This document shows positions 308-52,370 of a stretch of 64,000 bases of DNA, in pieces. The DNA lies in the NCBI GenBank assembly GCA_949282265.1, contig CASDOZ010000005.1:173678-237677 (forward strand). The letters run 5' to 3'. Below the pieces are notes generated by a model that was not told the DNA's origin, ran no database searches, and saw nothing but the letters and a program-made list of their open reading frames with translations. Both the position numbers and the translations under genes were made by a program. Position 1 is the stretch's first letter. Every line of letters starts with the position of its first letter. This stretch comes from an uncultured Bacteroidales bacterium. Lineage in GTDB: Bacteria > Bacteroidota > Bacteroidia > Bacteroidales > Paludibacteraceae.

Positions 308-2169
308 ATGAAAAACCTGCTTATAAAAACAATAGCCTGCACAACCATTCTGGTTGGCTGCATGGCGTGCCACGATGATTTGCTGAACCAGCCTACGCGG
401 GAACACCTGTCGTCATCCACTTTCTGGCAGACAACCGACGATGCCGAATACGCCCTGAACGGCGCCGTTGCCGATGTGCGCCACTTGTTCGACCGCGACT
501 ACTACCTGGATGCCATGGGCGAATATGTATATGTACGCGGTAACGTGCTGCAAGGCACAGCATCCAATTCCGACCCATCTACGGCCTTGAAAAACGGCGC
601 TGCATACGATGGTTTTTACGAGCTCAACCCTGCTGGATATGGTAACAGTTTCAGTAATATGTACAGATACTGCTATGGTGGGATTAATCGTTGCAATTAC
701 GTGATTGAAGGCGTACAAAACATGATTGGCCGTGAAACGAATCCGGATGACATTTCCGTGCTGGAAAGTTATGTCGGCGAAGCCAAGCTCTACCGCGCAC
801 TCATTTACCTGCGCCTAATCTCCTTGTGGGGCGACGTGCCCTACATTGACGAGCGCATCTACTACAAGGAGGAAGCGGACACGCTGTCCAGAAGACCCAT
901 TGAATACATCAAGGACAAAATGATCGAAGACCTCGAATATGCGTACCAGAAACTGCCCGATGCCGCCCCAAAATACGGACGCCTCGCCAAACCGGCCGCC
1001 CTGGCACTGCGGGGAAAAGTGAACCTGTACTGGGCAAGTTGGAACAAATTCGGATGGCCGGAACTGGATACGTTCACACCCAGCGCAGAAGAAGCCCAGA
1101 CAAAGTGATAGACGATTACGGGCTGGAACTGTTCCGCAATGGCGAACCCGGCACATGCGACCCGTTAGGCAAGGCCGAAAACCTGCCGAACTACTACTAT
1201 CTGTTCACTAACGTCGCCAACGGGGATAAAGAATTCATTATCGCATTTACACACGGAGGAGTCGGAACAGACCAGGGAGAACACCTGATGCGCGATTTGG
1301 CAGGGCGGACGCTCGAATACGGGCAATGCTGGGTAACACCGCGCTTTGAAGTTGCAAATCGGTACCAAGACCTGACCACAGGCGATTTCCGCGACTCGCT
1401 GATTGCCATGCCGCCGACCGTTGCCGATGCAAGGACAACGGAAAACTCCGCCATCAACCCGGAAAGCTACGACAACCGCGACTACCGGCTGAAATCATCC
1501 CTGCTGTGGGACTATGAAATGATCATGGGCATATACGACAAGGCGGAAACCGGCTGGTCGCCGTTCGTTTACAAAACATGGGGCGTAGAAAACTTTGAAA
1601 TAGACGGCGTGCTGTACAAGACCTACGAAACCGACGGCTGCATGACAGGTTATGTTTTCCGCAAGTTCGTGCGCAACTACGCCGGACAAGGACGCGACGA
1701 AGGCGATGTGGATTGGCCGGTCATCCGCTTGGCGGATGTTTACTTGATGTATGCCGAAGCCGTCAACTTTGCCAACCTGGCCTCCGAACGCGACTACGCC
1801 ATCCAACTGGTGAACAAAGTACGCCACCGCGGCAACCTGCCCGCCCTCAGCGCGGAGAAAACAGCCACGCAGGAAGCCTTCTTCGAAGCCATAGAGCAGG
1901 AACGCATTGTCGAGCTGCTGGCCGAAGGGCAACGCCCGTTCGACCTGAGACGCTGGCGGAAAATCGAAGAACGCTTCTGCCCGCCGGGCGACCCGGACGG
2001 CTACACCATCCGCGACACATGGGGAAACCCCACCAGCGGTTACAGCCACAGCGGCACATTCTTCCAGAACGCCACCAACCAGGTGTACGAACGCTGCTAC
2101 ATTTTCGCCATTCCGGAAAGCGAACGCAACCGGAACCCGAACCTGACACAGAATAAACCGTGGCTCTAA
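308..2169 (+). pseudogene. susD: SusD/RagB-family glycan-binding lipoprotein split by a frameshift near 1090-1105
   Basis: ORF 308-1108 has a lipoprotein signal (LVGCMAC) and a SusD N-terminal region. ORF 1039-2169 carries the RagB/SusD C-terminal region (...VIRLADVYLMYAEA...ERIVELLAEGQRPFDLRRW...). The two overlap in different frames and together make about one normal-length SusD. Confidence 0.8.
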
Positions 2170-5828: not shown

Positions 5829-6649
5829 CCGGCAGGCTCTTCCGGCAAAGCCCCGTTTTCCCCTTCGGGCAATGATTCCATCCCGGCATCGGGCACAGCC
5901 GCGTCCGGCGCATCCTCCTGCGCAGCCGCGGCGCGTCCCTTGCGTTTGGCAAGGGTCACCTCGAAGTCGTGCAGGCGGTTGTTCAGCCGCCTGAACAGGT
6001 CGGCATAACGCTCCGGCCCGTACACCACGCACAGCGCGTTGAGCCGCCGCGCCAGCCCGCGGTAGCACGCCAGCAGCTCCTGCCGCGCTTTCAGCGAATC
6101 GCCCGTATGCCGCCACACGTTCTCCATGGCGCGCCGCTTGTCTGTTTCCATATACAGCCGGTGCACCCGCTCCAGCTCGTCCACCCAGGCCGTCAGCCCC
6201 AGCACCTCCACACGCGGCGCACGCGCCTCGCTGCGCATGTCCGCAATGAAATTCTCCATATAGCCGGCCTTGTCGGCCAACGGTTTGCGGTGCACGCCCT
6301 TGTAGGTGTTCACCACCGGCCGCAGCCCGCAGGCCGCCTCGCGCGCCTTTGCCTCATAGTGCCGGTAGCCCGTCCGTATGGTGCGCATAATGCCCATGAA
6401 CACGTCCGTGCGCTGCCTGTCCAGCCCGTCCAGCTGGGGCGTCAGCGCCGACCGCCCGACCACCACAATCACCTGTTCGTAGCGTTCCAGCGCGGCACAG
6501 AACGCCCCGAAGCTCTCCTCGCAATCCAGGTGCGCCGCGTCGGCCCCCTCTTGCCCGATGGCATCACGCACCTCGCAGCAAAAGGTCATGAACTCATTGT
6601 TGCGCAGCTCCCGCACCTGTCCCAACGGCCTGATCATTGTCTTTTCCAT
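5801..6649 (-). CDS. Orphan cytoplasmic protein, paralog A (282 aa, Pro/Glu/Ala-rich C-terminal tail)
   Basis: ATG at 6649 (MEKTMIRPLGQV...). The longer ORF to 6781 runs into non-coding-looking sequence. Clearly homologous to the product of 51576-52370 (shared blocks GAD, LTxQLxxLDRQR, TIR, ExLGL). No signal peptide or TM segment. Confidence 0.7.
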   Translation of the reverse strand: MEKTMIRPLGQVRELRNNEFMTFCCEVRDAIGQEGADAAHLDCEESFGAFCAALERYEQVIVVVGRSALTPQLDGLDRQRTDVFMGIMRTIRTGYRHYEAKAREAACGLRPVVNTYKGVHRKPLADKAGYMENFIADMRSEARAPRVEVLGLTAWVDELERVHRLYMETDKRRAMENVWRHTGDSLKARQELLACYRGLARRLNALCVVYGPERYADLFRRLNNRLHDFEVTLAKRKGRAAAAQEDAPDAAVPDAGMESLPEGENGALPEEPAGQLPDSRLS

Positions 6650-6802
6650 AATATAATTCGTTTGATTGGTTGTCCGCCTGTTTTTTCCGGCCGGCCTGCC
6701 CATCCGCCCGCCAATCCGTCCGCAGGCCTCCGGCCGGATGCCCGTACGTGGTTCCCGCCCATCCTGTGCCTGCGATGGCAAATATAGGCAAAAGAAAGTG
6801 AT

Positions 6803-7084
6803 ATTGCAAACAGGTAATAAATATACGACAGATTATCGAGCCATTTATTACCTAATGCAATTGATATTACCACAAATATAGAACTATCTATTACTTGACG
6901 TAACAAATAGTATAATAAACATAAAACTATTTATTACAATATGTAACAAATAGTTTCCTGAATATAGAATTATATATTACTGAATGTAATAGATTGTATT
7001 ACATATATAATCCTATTCATTACGACAGGTAATAGATAGTTTTACATATATGGATATATAAATTACTGAATGTAATAGATAGTT
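6803..7084. repeat. Tandem array of 7 units, period 42-44 bp, each with palindromic core ATTAC-N5-GTAAY followed by ARATWGT
   Basis: Cores start at 6803 (degenerate ATTGC-N6-GTAAT), 6847 (ATTAC-N5-GCAAT), 6889, 6933, 6976, 7019 and 7062. The block is very AT-rich and lies about 150-435 bp upstream of the minus-strand ATG at 6649. Confidence 0.85.
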
Positions 7085-7245
7085 CCATGAATCGGCTTAT
7101 AATAAATACGCTCTTGTGCAGACATCCTGCCCATGCAGCCATGCCCGCCATGCCATCCGGTGCAGGCTGCACCTGCCTGCCGCCATGCAGCCGCGGCTGG
7201 CGGACACCACCGCCTGCCAACCTGGCAAATAGACATAAGAAGTGG

Positions 7246-7977
7246 TTACAAGCGGTCTATAACGTAATGTTTGAACCATGAGGGAATGTACTCTATCCCA
7301 TCGGCAAGCGACATGCTCCCGGCGTTCACAGATGCCAGCAGCTTGGGTTCGGACGCGCTGTTGTCGAAAATGAACGCGCGGTCGGCCAGCCTCATGGCCT
7401 CGAGCAGCTGTTCCATGGAACGCCCATAACGTTCCGTGATTTTGTCTTCCGGCACAGAGTGCCCTCCCTGTTGCACCCGTGCGGCCACGCGCTCCTTGTT
7501 CAAGGCAGGGTTTTCCAGCGACACAAAATAGAGGTAAATGCGGTATCCCTTGCTTTTGGCAAGGCGGATATAGTCCACTTTGGAAGGATGGGACATGACG
7601 GTCTCAAAGGTGAACCGATCGCAACAGTCAAGCATTTTTTCCCGCAAATATGCCGAAAGGAAGGACGTAAAATAATCATTCACGGCAACCGGCAAGCACA
7701 AGACTGTTCCCTCAAACCGGCTTCCTGCCTTCAGGATGCCGCCATCAGCCTTGCCAAACAACGCCGATTGGGAAAACCGCGCCCAAAAATCATTCTGGTC
7801 AATAACGGGCAGATAGGTGGCAAAATCGAACCGCAACGTTTCATTGATGCCGCCTTTCAATTCGTCTGCGTTAATGTATTTGCCTAAATGGATACCCGCA
7901 TTCCTTACGATTGCAGTTATAGTCGATTTACCCGAGCCGTTGGGGCCAGCGAAAATGCGGAGGCGTTTGGTAGTCAT
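7246..7977 (-). CDS. Zeta-toxin / COG4185-type P-loop kinase (toxin candidate)
   Basis: Walker A motif FAGPNGSGKST at the N-terminus. ETVMSH and GGHSVPEDKITERY blocks are typical of the zeta-toxin/AAA_33 family. A small partner gene sits 3 nt upstream. Confidence 0.75.
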   Translation of the reverse strand: MTTKRLRIFAGPNGSGKSTITAIVRNAGIHLGKYINADELKGGINETLRFDFATYLPVIDQNDFWARFSQSALFGKADGGILKAGSRFEGTVLCLPVAVNDYFTSFLSAYLREKMLDCCDRFTFETVMSHPSKVDYIRLAKSKGYRIYLYFVSLENPALNKERVAARVQQGGHSVPEDKITERYGRSMEQLLEAMRLADRAFIFDNSASEPKLLASVNAGSMSLADGIEYIPSWFKHYVIDRL

Positions 7978-50772: not shown

Positions 50773-51127
50773 GTACTTTTTACAATTCAGGCGCAAAAAT
50801 AATCATTTTTTTCCGAGCACGAAGCATTCCGATGTCCCTTTGTGATAATTCCGCCCGGCAATGCCGCCACGCCGCCACGGCAAAGCAGACAAAACGGGCG
50901 AGAAGCCACTCAAGGCCAGATGGCTCATGGGCACGCGGAAAGAAAGCGGCAGTAAATAAAGCAGCAAGAACCGGAAGCCCAGAACCAGAACAAAGGCACA
51001 GCGACCTAAGGCAGGAAATCCATAAGGGAAAGTCCAGACCGAAAAACCAAATAACGGAGAACATGGTTTATTTTGAACCTTTCAGACATTATATTTATTC
51101 ATAGCTTATTTGGATATACACAATTGT

Positions 51128-51379
51128 TATTTATCCATAAACAATATGATATTGCACATACGCAAGTAGTATTTATCTATAAACAATATCATATTGCGTG
51201 TACGCAAGTAGTATTTATCTATAAACAATATCCTATTGCGTGTACGCAAGTAGTATTTATCCGAAAACAATGTCCTATTGCGTGCACGCAAGCAGTATTT
51301 ATCTATAAACAATGTCATATTGTGCTTGCGCAAGCAGCATTTATCTGCAAACAATGTCCTATTGTGTCTGCGCAAGTAT
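51128..51379. repeat. Tandem array of six exact 42-bp-period units (plus degenerate flanking copies), each with two palindromes
   Basis: Units at 51128, 51170, 51212, 51254, 51296 and 51338. Consensus TATTTATCTATAAACAATRTCMTATTGCGTGYACGCAAGYAG. It contains TTTAT-CT-ATAAA and TTGCG-N4-CGCAA (the unit at 51254 carries the perfect 14-nt palindrome TTGCGTGCACGCAA). Degenerate echoes occur at about 51086-51127 and 51380-51440. Confidence 0.9.
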
Positions 51380-51575
51380 ATTTTATAGAAAAACAAAGCC
51401 AACTTATGCTTATATGCTTATAGTATATGCATAAACAATTTACTTTTTACATAATCCGGATATAATTTATTGTTTGCAGCTTAAATCATGCGTATATAAA
51501 ATTAAAATTCATATATTTGCAGGGAAAACATTATATGCCAAACAGGATTTGCCCATCCTTAACAACCAAACAGCC

Positions 51576-52370
51576 ATGAGAACTGTCACAAACATCCGAA
51601 AAATCGACTTGGGGCATTTGAACCTGAGCGAATACACCAACTTCATGAACCGCGTGCTGGCACTGGTAAACGCAAGCGGTGCAGACAAACTTGGCATTGC
51701 CACGGACGAACTCGCGGCCTTCCAGACCGATGTGGAACTGCTCAACAAACTGCTGAAACAGTCGCAGGCCAACGAGCTGACCATCCAGCTCAGGCAACTT
51801 GACCGGCAGCGCAAAAGCATGATGACCTACATAGCCGGCACCATCCGGAACAGCGCACAGCTACCCATGAAGTCCATGCGGCAGGCCGGACAAGCATTGA
51901 AACTGCCCTTGAAGCCCTACGTGGGCATCGCGCGGCAACCCGCGCAGCAACGGACGGCACAAATCAACAGCCTGCTCCGCGACCTGGGCGGCGACATGGC
52001 AACCCACATGGAAACGCTCGGGCTGTCCGACATGGCAGAGCACTTGCAGCAAACCAACGACTTGTATGCCACGATGACCGACCGGCGCACAGCCACCGAA
52101 GCCGCCAGCCGGCTCGAAAGCAGCCCATCGGCACGGCCGCGCATCAACCTCGAATATGACACGCTCGCACAGATAGCCTTCGCCACCAACCTGCTCCACC
52201 CCACGGCAGAAACGGCCGCCTTTGTGCGCGACCTGAACGCCACCATAGCCGAAACCAAAGCACGCTACAACCTGCGCAAGGCACAAGCCGCTACCGCGGA
52301 AGAACCGGACAGCAGGCCACAGGACAGCACACCAAACACCACCGAAACGGTGGAAACGGCAGAAATATAA
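51576..52370 (+). CDS. Orphan cytoplasmic protein, paralog B (264 aa, acidic/Thr/Pro-rich tail)
   Basis: ATG at 51576 (MRTVTNIRKIDLG...). Homologous to the product of 5801-6649. No signal peptide or TM segment. Confidence 0.7.
   Translation: MRTVTNIRKIDLGHLNLSEYTNFMNRVLALVNASGADKLGIATDELAAFQTDVELLNKLLKQSQANELTIQLRQLDRQRKSMMTYIAGTIRNSAQLPMKSMRQAGQALKLPLKPYVGIARQPAQQRTAQINSLLRDLGGDMATHMETLGLSDMAEHLQQTNDLYATMTDRRTATEAASRLESSPSARPRINLEYDTLAQIAFATNLLHPTAETAAFVRDLNATIAETKARYNLRKAQAATAEEPDSRPQDSTPNTTETVETAEI

Follow-up and report, generated by a model that had tools for sequence, protein, structure and literature searches.

Tandem arrays with a period of four helical turns upstream of DUF6261 genes in Bacteroidota: a candidate operator module

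Described repeat arrays beside the gene of a presumed binder

Repeat arrays adjoining the gene of their presumed binder are already known as a general kind. Among the known systems, sopC of plasmid F, with 12 direct repeats of 43 bp in each of which SopB binds a 16-bp inverted repeat (PMC3177203), is the closest in geometry to the arrays that we describe here upstream of genes of the DUF6261 family (Pfam PF19775). In either case direct repeats of 42–43 bp, with one dyad of about 15 bp in each, adjoin the gene of the presumed binder. They differ in that: (i) sopC is located downstream of sopB, but the DUF6261 array is on the upstream side of its gene, adjoining the promoter; (ii) the DUF6261 arrays belong to the chromosome, and a genome has several independent modules, each with its own unit sequence; (iii) the DUF6261 loci have no ParA/SopA ATPase or ParB-fold protein. 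Hence, we reject their identity as centromeres of the ParABS/sopC type, since the repeats with their dyads are present without an adjacent ParA and ParB. In partition systems of types Ib and II, such as parC–ParR of R1 and the omega heptads of pSM19035, the site arrays are likewise upstream of the gene for their binder, and cooperative binding to them also represses the promoter. These systems are built on repeats of 7–11 bp, small ribbon-helix-helix binders and an NTPase partner that is always encoded, and the DUF6261 modules show none of these three features.

A different likeness is presented by the type III toxin–antitoxin (TA) systems (toxIN, cptIN, tenpIN), which place system-specific tandem repeats, two to six or more in number and a few tens of nucleotides long, directly upstream of a standalone gene, and which, like the DUF6261 arrays, are chromosomal and present in many copies. 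The criteria of Blower for this class, as quoted in PMC12283969, require that a Rho-independent terminator separate the repeats from the toxin gene. We found no intrinsic terminator separating array from gene at any of 21 DUF6261 loci, nor in the window.

Two further kinds of repeat are promoter-associated. BrickBuilt of Porphyromonas gingivalis, a minisatellite or MITE with a 23-nt unit, is one sequence dispersed at 19 loci, ends in leader and tail inverted repeats and is not tied to one gene family (PMC4596501). Like BrickBuilt, the DUF6261 arrays are intergenic tandem repeats of Bacteroidales associated with promoter activity (with predicted promoters in the DUF6261 case); unlike it, each of them is unique in sequence, has a 42-bp period and is tied to DUF6261. 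With the promoter-proximal VNTR contingency loci they share copy-number polymorphism between strains directly upstream of a (predicted) promoter; they depart from those loci in a dyad-containing 42-bp unit, whose length is conserved across the phylum, and in their link to a single family of cytoplasmic proteins rather than to surface antigens. The association between DUF6261 and a four-turn array appears to be undescribed: literature searches on DUF6261, on 42-bp repeats of Bacteroidetes and on type III TA systems in Bacteroides returned nothing relevant.

Two arrays and two DUF6261 genes in one window

The window, i.e., the whole stretch of 64,000 nucleotides (64 kb) that was analyzed, contains just two DUF6261 genes, P1 and P2, as judged by the family HMM run against its six-frame translation. 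Their products match PF19775 and are 27% identical to each other (E 2e-18). Each gene has a tandem array upstream of it (Table 1), and these two are the only arrays in the window for which TRF gives a period of more than 21 bp; with two arrays, two DUF6261 genes and no further instance of either, the pairing is one-to-one. All promoter calls in this work are predictions from the Bacteroidetes consensus TTTG/TAnnTTTG.

Table 1. Coordinates of the arrays, dyads, predicted promoters and genes in the window.
Feature	Positions	Strand	Basis and remarks
P1, DUF6261 family protein, 282 aa	5801–6649	-	PF19775 E 3e-28; hmmsearch E 4e-69
Predicted Bacteroidetes-type P1 promoter: TTTG (6807–6810), N20, TATATTTG (6779–6786)	6779–6810	-	Sequence motif
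Degenerate promoter-proximal dyad ATTGC-N6-GTAAT, 16 bp	6803–6818		Read from sequence; 44 bp from next core
Array 1, 43-bp units: six good and one degenerate	6803–7084	-	TRF; upstream of P1; kept in ortholog L011
Six ATTAC-N5-GTAAY dyad cores (6847, 6890, 6933, 6976, 7019, 7062)	6847–7076		Each centers a longer dyad
Array 2, 6.1 units of 42 bp, 86% match	51128–51383	+	TRF score 316; upstream of P2
Six TTGCG-N4-CGCAA dyads (51152, 51194, 51236, 51278, 51320, 51362)	51152–51375		42-bp steps
Decayed units between array 2 and promoter	51377–51484		Inverted repeats I1–I5
Predicted P2 -7 box TATATTTG	51512–51519	+	Sequence; in L001 at -64
P2, DUF6261 family protein, 264 aa	51576–52370	+	PF19775 E 2e-33
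Intrinsic terminator after P2	52389–52426	+	17-bp stem, then T run

A sequence-only reading of this DNA had described array 1 as seven phased palindromes in an AT-rich, non-coding block about 150 bp from the start codon at 6649. The tandem array is real: TRF calls arrays of period 43 over 6874–7084, and six of the cores are exactly 43 bp apart. The positions given for the cores stand, except that the one placed at 6889 starts at 6890 and the copy at 6803 is degenerate; the ARATWGT reported to follow each core is present, but is really the outer part of a longer dyad. These longer dyads have arms of 12–15 bp, with 53 of 72 positions pairing when counted with 12-bp arms, and the unit centered at 6940 is a near-perfect 35-bp dyad. 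Minority bases make up 6% of the arms, 40% of the center and 23% of the linker. Ten matches to ATTAC-N5-GTAAT with at most one mismatch occur in the window against 1.9 expected, a number reached in none of 100 shuffles, and six of them are the array 1 cores. The description of the block likewise holds, in that GC is 0.22 in L011 (the near-identical ortholog of array 1), no credible ORF lies inside the array, and 154 bp separate the array from the P1 ATG. The degenerate dyad at 6803 overlaps the TTTG of the predicted -33 element, and L011 has the same promoter motif, at -187, again with a -33 TTTG.

The same reading had pointed to a second array of like geometry but with a different palindrome before a paralog, and this too is borne out by the 42-bp TTGCG-N4-CGCAA units of array 2, in which minority bases make up 6% of the arms and 35% of the center. 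The decayed stretch between this array and the promoter includes inverted partial units at 51377–51393 and 51468–51484. Separately, a relic direct unit can be read by eye at about 51417–51458. The strong terminator 3' of P2 makes this module monocistronic. Two paralogs of one genome thus have arrays with different dyads (ATTAC-N5-GTAAT versus TTGCG-N4-CGCAA), and outside the arrays isolated copies of either dyad are no more frequent in the window than expected by chance. A Bacteroidales MAG that closely matches the window (CALUNA010000008.1) supplies the orthologs of both arrays, L011 for array 1 and L001 for array 2; L001 keeps its array, which differs from array 2 by 15.6% as against 3.2% in the flanking non-coding DNA.

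Several established identities were considered and rejected. In line with the sequence-only reading, the arrays are neither CRISPRs nor IS elements or MITEs: the whole 42–43 bp unit repeats without unique spacers, no cas gene is found among the Pfam-checked neighbors, no terminal inverted repeats flank the arrays of the window and the unit sequence is private to each locus. An inverton is not indicated, since it is only in the L019 cluster that the array lies between the arms of a 28-bp inverted repeat, and 24 of 24 assemblies have the same orientation. The suggested resemblance to iterons fails in the replication sense, with no Rep gene or origin signal and a cumulative GC skew that is monotonic across the window. 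As for a plasmid origin, the only matches in the plasmid database are chromosome-like Parabacteroides records, which we judge to be mislabeled. Nor is there a sign of phage or defense-island provenance: no relatives were found among INPHARED phages or in IMG/VR, and no PADLOC or PHROG matches for DUF6261. Finally, Rfam 15 yields no match at the gathering score and chance-level matches up to E 10, which speaks against a known RNA family.

The array and its protein family across Bacteroidota

P1 is not the orphan gene that it had been taken for. DUF6261 comprises about 4,500 clusters at 50% identity, and all its relatives with a traceable source are from Bacteroidota. Sequence searches found no relative in PDB, and the AlphaFold model of P2 (pLDDT 84) is an all-helical, eight-helix bundle with one helix of 49 residues, for which the best Foldseek matches in PDB and BFVD do not go below E 0.05. 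Neither a helix-turn-helix nor another DNA-binding fold of known type is recognizable in the family, no ParB match emerged from Pfam, PDB sequence or fold searches, and isoelectric points range from 4.4 to 9.7; taken on their own, these protein features argue neither for nor against nucleic-acid binding.

To survey the upstream regions we assembled DUF6261 loci from a genome scan (nine Capnocytophaga loci with eight distinct DUF6261 genes among them), a scan of metagenomes (80 loci, mostly of the human gut, which gave 12 further gene clusters), two records of Parabacteroides distasonis, a species that has WP_011966849 and WP_005857779, and three look-ups of distant relatives. The tested set, a sample skewed by the peptide pattern used in the scans, comprises 26 distinct loci of Bacteroidales, Capnocytophaga and gut metagenomes with enough upstream sequence. 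In 24 of these a periodicity of 41–43 bp, or a multiple of it, is the top upstream signal: the strongest self-similarity lag is 41–43 bp in 20 loci and 82–86 or 126 bp in four. L007 and L061, which lack this signal, are the sole exceptions. Among 266 control windows, drawn from the same loci and the remainder of the 64-kb window, nine have their top lag at 41–43 bp, which is the chance rate, and none of these is strong. The period is 41 bp in two loci, 42 bp in 18 and 43 bp in four, 42 bp being 4.0 turns of B-DNA. DUF6261 genes of Bacteroidota are thus almost always found directly downstream of a 41–43 bp tandem array, and the association is robust and phylum-wide.

Within this constant frame nearly everything else varies. 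Arrays have 2 to 10 units, end 27–216 bp from the start codon and range in GC from 0.19 to 0.71. Unit sequences of distant loci are unrelated, and the period nonetheless stays within 1 bp between proteins that are merely 22–30% identical, across two orders. Between proteins that are 65–87% identical the similarity of the units is still recognizable; related proteins having related units, array and gene appear to diverge together. Copy number also differs between strains with the same gene: the L014 cluster, with 13 loci, spans 2.4 to 8.4 units, and the L019 cluster 2.1 to 4.3. Other genes near DUF6261 are likewise preceded by related arrays built on 42 bp in Capnocytophaga, namely those for a DUF389 protein, a cytolysin-like protein and a TolC-like protein (assigned by eye), so the linkage to DUF6261 is looser there. 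No family of neighboring genes recurs between DUF6261 clusters in Pfam searches; the module is an array, a promoter and one gene.

These results bear unevenly on the sequence-only reading. The view that the pattern is functional rather than debris of slippage gains from the recurrence of same-period arrays at 24 of the 26 homologous loci, the comparison of strains that it had proposed reveals variable copy number, and the placement of the sites on one helical face accords with units of 42–43 bp and conserved dyad arms. The tie between array and gene family holds in the same 24 loci, but not exclusively, given the Capnocytophaga arrays before other genes. The count of seven and the AT-richness prove incidental, as copy number is strain-variable and some arrays are 65–71% GC, and a palindrome is clear in roughly two thirds of arrays.

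In those two thirds each unit has one dyad of 14–18 bp with arms of 4–9 bp, e.g., TTGCA-N5-TGCAA, TCCGG-N4-CCGGA, AAATCTGA-CA-TCAGATTT and GTCCCGC-GG-GCGGGAC. The remaining third, including L003, L008, L052 and L060, have no clear one. The arms are the least variable positions of the unit (0–9% minority bases), the centers are the most variable in most arrays (15–40%, though 0% in L095) and the linkers are mostly intermediate (7–29%); the regular expressions that anchored the units favor conserved arms, but in arrays 1 and 2 they captured all good units. Conserved arms around a variable center fit sites of proteins on duplex DNA, and not RNA hairpins. Beyond a weak enrichment of TAAAA (a TAAAA or TTTTA tract is present in 12 of 18 unit consensi, the 95th percentile of shuffles being nine) no motif common to all arrays was found.

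Some dyads decay, as do units at the edges of arrays. Inverted dyad centers in L091 and L002 point to template switching, a process that could keep palindromes perfect without selection. Units with different perfect stems coexist in the single array of L091. The arrays of L094 and L095, which are homologous, both have perfect 7-bp arms, although four inner positions of either arm have changed between them; L094 retains the other arm type in its first unit, the swapped stems being GTCAAAT/ATTTGAC and GTCCCGC/GCGGGAC. The coexistence of perfect dyads with different inner sequence suggests that self-complementarity itself is maintained. Symmetric changes of the arms between paralogous systems are also to be expected from a dimeric DNA binder shifting its specificity.

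Predicted promoters mostly follow the arrays. The stretch from array to ATG has about three times the density of TAnnTTTG-like boxes seen in the 300 bp ahead of the array, and it contains the best matches; good ones occur there in about half of all loci, and upstream of the arrays a consensus box is rare. L094 departs from this in having a consensus TACATTTG 184 bp upstream of its array, with about 110 bp of leader between the two that are conserved in L095; furthermore, the arrays of L094 and L097 end 40 bp short of the ATG. By our reading, the last dyad and the -7 box are not in a constant helical phase with each other.

A proposed phased operator array and its alternatives

We favor, with a probability of about 0.4, the interpretation that the arrays are phased operators that act as duplex DNA, are bound cooperatively on one face and control the adjacent promoter, with the DUF6261 product as the simplest candidate for the binder. 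Briefly, the array would serve as the cis-element in a self-contained module of array, promoter and DUF6261 gene that recurs across Bacteroidota. A dyad site every four helical turns would bring all sites onto one face of the helix, in a row directly upstream of the gene's own predicted promoter or, in array 1, overlapping it. A dimeric protein might bind these dyads cooperatively and thereby set the activity of the promoter, while gain or loss of units may tune the response. The DUF6261 protein would be the most economical binder because it is the product of the sole gene always co-inherited with the arrays and because each paralog has its own dyad sequence; it could act via autoregulation or as a nucleoprotein filament. 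That a protein binds, which protein this is and the sign of the regulation are what we infer; the patterns from which we do so are as follows.

For action as duplex DNA: (i) the period of 4.0 turns holds within 1 bp despite complete turnover of sequence; (ii) half-sites are conserved and spacers variable; (iii) predicted promoters come after the array, and no terminator separates it from the gene; (iv) whole-array RNA folding energies have no consistent preference for sense or antisense; (v) mismatches of array 1 compatible with G-U pairing divide 6 versus 4 between the strands. For operators in particular, there is the linkage to arrays at 24 of 26 DUF6261 loci against nine of 266 controls, the absence of a conserved neighbor, the paralog-specific dyads within one genome and the related units of related proteins. 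Thus the arrays have the conserved half-sites, variable spacer, single helical face and nearby predicted promoter expected of an operator array, with the qualification that about a third are without clear dyads.

Several observations count against operators. DUF6261 is without a known DNA-binding fold and its isoelectric points spread widely; L003, L008, L052 and L060 are without clear dyads; arrays outpace their flanks in divergence, as array 2 does, and some dyads decay; perfect dyads with different inner sequences occur within L091 and, through its first unit, within L094; the arrays of L094 and L097 leave little room for a promoter; and the last dyad is not in constant phase with the -7 box. 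Moreover, the sense strand is A+C-rich in 15 of 17 Bacteroidales arrays, like the coding strand of the gene, which hints at an orientation-dependent constraint, possibly one on RNA. We also regard as rather doubtful a bolder version, in which DUF6261 would be a new class of nucleic-acid-binding proteins with a novel helical fold, each recognizing and polymerizing along a private 42-bp-phased array of DNA or transcript, and in which such self-contained modules of protein and cognate array would have radiated across Bacteroidota into mutually specific pairs by the thousand.

The main rival, which we nevertheless consider unlikely, is an RNA partner like that of type III TA systems: transcription from a promoter of its own or by read-through would turn the array into a repeat RNA of hairpins with unstructured linkers, cognate to each paralog, that the DUF6261 protein binds or processes as a ribonucleoprotein or TA-like pair. 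Its appeal lies in the placement of tandem repeats directly upstream of a small standalone gene, as in toxIN, cptIN and tenpIN (criteria quoted in PMC12283969), in the several paralogs per genome with private repeats and in the fast evolution of family and arrays alike. The perfect hairpins with swapped inner stems (L094/L095 and the L091 units) are what it would predict, the GC-rich arrays have A/C-rich linkers on the sense strand, and internal mismatches are of the G-T kind on the sense strand in seven arrays and on the antisense strand in two, a difference that is not significant. The L094 and L097 arrays that approach the ATG, and the TACATTTG box with its conserved leader upstream of the L094 array, would also suit it. 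Against it, the repeat-to-gene terminator is absent in all 21 loci, good predicted promoters follow the array in about half of the loci with few upstream, and neither folding energies nor the 6 to 4 split of G-U versus A-C in array 1 consistently prefer one strand. The loops are the most variable part and the stems are conserved in sequence, the reverse of what is typical for RNA hairpins recognized by a protein, and the period coincides with four turns of DNA. Further, an RNase fold, whether ToxN-like, HEPN or other, is not seen in the protein: Pfam gives DUF6261 alone, the model is a helical bundle rather than an endoribonuclease of the ToxN/AbiQ/CptN/TenpN type, and PADLOC and Rfam are silent. 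By terminator and toxin fold, then, the modules fall outside the known type III TA class, the upstream repeats notwithstanding.

Distinctly less plausible is a protein-independent VNTR contingency locus, which would tune the promoter through the geometry of the DNA itself, by in-phase bends, by cruciforms or absorption of supercoils, or by the spacing of an upstream element, with units of whole turns gained and lost at no shift in helical phase. This agrees with the wide variation of copy number between strains with the same gene (2.4–8.4 and 2.1–4.3), with a four-turn period that is kept whatever the sequence, even in dyad-less arrays, with the A/T tract in 12 of 18 unit consensi and with the long AT-rich dyads of array 1, which could extrude as cruciforms. 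Short GC-rich dyads would not extrude, and it leaves unexplained why the period is 42 bp rather than 21, 31–32 or 52–53 bp, why a single protein family should have the arrays and why conservation peaks in the dyad arms.

We give still less credence to an unlinked nucleoid-associated protein or global regulator that recognizes a degenerate or structural feature once per unit and for which DUF6261 is a mere target. The want of a DNA-binding fold in DUF6261, the weak common TAAAA enrichment and the Capnocytophaga arrays before unrelated genes (DUF389, cytolysin-like, TolC-like) would be natural under such a host factor. However, dyads are unrelated even within one genome, so a single sequence-specific factor cannot read all of them, and no other gene in the Bacteroidales window has such an array. 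Lastly, that a neutral minisatellite arose once by an ancestral DUF6261 gene and was passively inherited, with concerted evolution preserving its period, is highly improbable: arrays do evolve faster than their flanks, edge units decay, and, through the template switching seen in L091 and L002, perfect palindromes can persist with no selection, but the period stays within 1 bp at 22–30% protein identity across two orders despite sequence turnover and unit gain and loss, the array is kept in 24 of 26 loci and conservation within units is not uniform.

Returning to the proposed operator array and its module, the broader interest lies in DUF6261 itself, a large, uncharacterized, Bacteroidota-specific family that is common in human gut and oral species. 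A near-constant non-coding partner, strict in its four-turn period and free in its sequence, provides the first experimental handle on this family, and the loci offer a natural system for the study of how a protein co-evolves with the period, copy number and dyad specificity of its repeats. Were the bolder proposal of a new class of protein–array pairs true, these could serve as addiction or defense switches or, alternatively, as ruler-like nucleoprotein filaments in which the length of the subunit sets the four-turn period. If DUF6261 proteins bind their own arrays, they would furnish many orthogonal protein–DNA (or protein–RNA) pairs for synthetic biology in Bacteroides; and if copy number tunes expression, the arrays would be hitherto unrecognized, strain-variable switches in gut commensals.

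Modular arrays beside other genes in Capnocytophaga

The 84, 85 and 126 bp periods of the intergenic arrays at four Capnocytophaga DUF6261 loci (L002, L003, L006 and L008; Table) are multiples of one 42-bp module: each array is composed of 42-bp subunits, every one with a CCCCC..GGGGG hairpin. The genes that they adjoin, either before or after, are unrelated, with the DUF6261 genes lying at most 2.4 kb away. The units before the DUF389 gene belong to a family identical to that of the DUF6261-proximal array of the same locus (L004) and follow the order A-A-B, giving a 126-bp super-period, where B is a second unit type containing two CTTTGTCAAAG-type palindromes. At L007, the DUF6261 gene lies 600 bp downstream of the cytolysin-like gene and is without a clear array of its own.

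Coordinates of arrays and neighboring features
Feature	Location	Strand	Detail
Capnocytophaga intergenic array	L002:891-1378		period 84, 85 or 126 bp
Capnocytophaga intergenic array	L003:~920-1170		period 84, 85 or 126 bp
Capnocytophaga intergenic array	L006:2310-2808		period 84, 85 or 126 bp
Capnocytophaga intergenic array	L008:793-1132		period 84, 85 or 126 bp
Nine 42-bp units	L004:834-1214		upstream of DUF389 membrane-protein gene
43-bp array	L007:204-397		upstream of thiol-activated-cytolysin-like gene
Zeta_toxin/AAA-like P-loop protein	window 7246-7977	-	Pfam E 1.5e-8
GC-rich blocks (~70% GC)	window 6650-6778 and 7108-7230		either side of AT-rich array 1
Long AT-rich palindromes (AAATAGTTTGCAAACTATTT)	L062:2620-2677 and L090:2604-2641		adjoin divergent BlaI/Penicillinase_R repressor gene
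Homologous GC-rich arrays	L094:-462..-40 and L095:-290..-70		relative to start codon
Inverted repeat, 28-37 bp	L019:2746-2908 and L012:675-837		encloses entire array; inverton-like
Distal-most unit reversed vs remaining units	L052:2693-2729 and L090:2676-2707		head-to-head junction

Flanks of the arrays

In the window, 160 bp separate array 1 from the end of the Zeta_toxin/AAA-like gene. One of the GC-rich blocks forms the predicted 125-nt 5' leader of P1, the DUF6261 gene at this array, with a 12-bp repeat inside (6694-6723). The second block, a 3' region, bears the palindrome GGTGCAG-G-CTGCACC, which yields a sub-threshold match to the S4-Bacteroidia leader (7165-7199, E 0.014). Between the two homologous GC-rich arrays, both dyad arms are changed, each at four inner positions, and about 110 bp upstream of each array is conserved between the loci; at L094, a consensus TACATTTG also precedes the array by 184 bp. 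As for the palindromes beside the BlaI/Penicillinase_R gene, they are probably the operator of that gene, distinct from the DUF6261 array.

Orientation and open frames

No flipped array was seen at the enclosing inverted repeat, with a single orientation in 24 of 24 assemblies; in one strain (L030), the enclosed array has two more units. In the window, array 2 differs from the loci with a reversed distal-most unit: its inverted partial units (51377-51393 and 51468-51484) lie towards the promoter. The public gene call for P0001, the closest relative of P2 (the DUF6261 protein encoded at window 51576-52370), begins 34 codons too early, placing the called start within the promoter region. The only reason that ORFs run uninterrupted through the array regions (e.g., window 51073-51423) is that 42 is divisible by 3.
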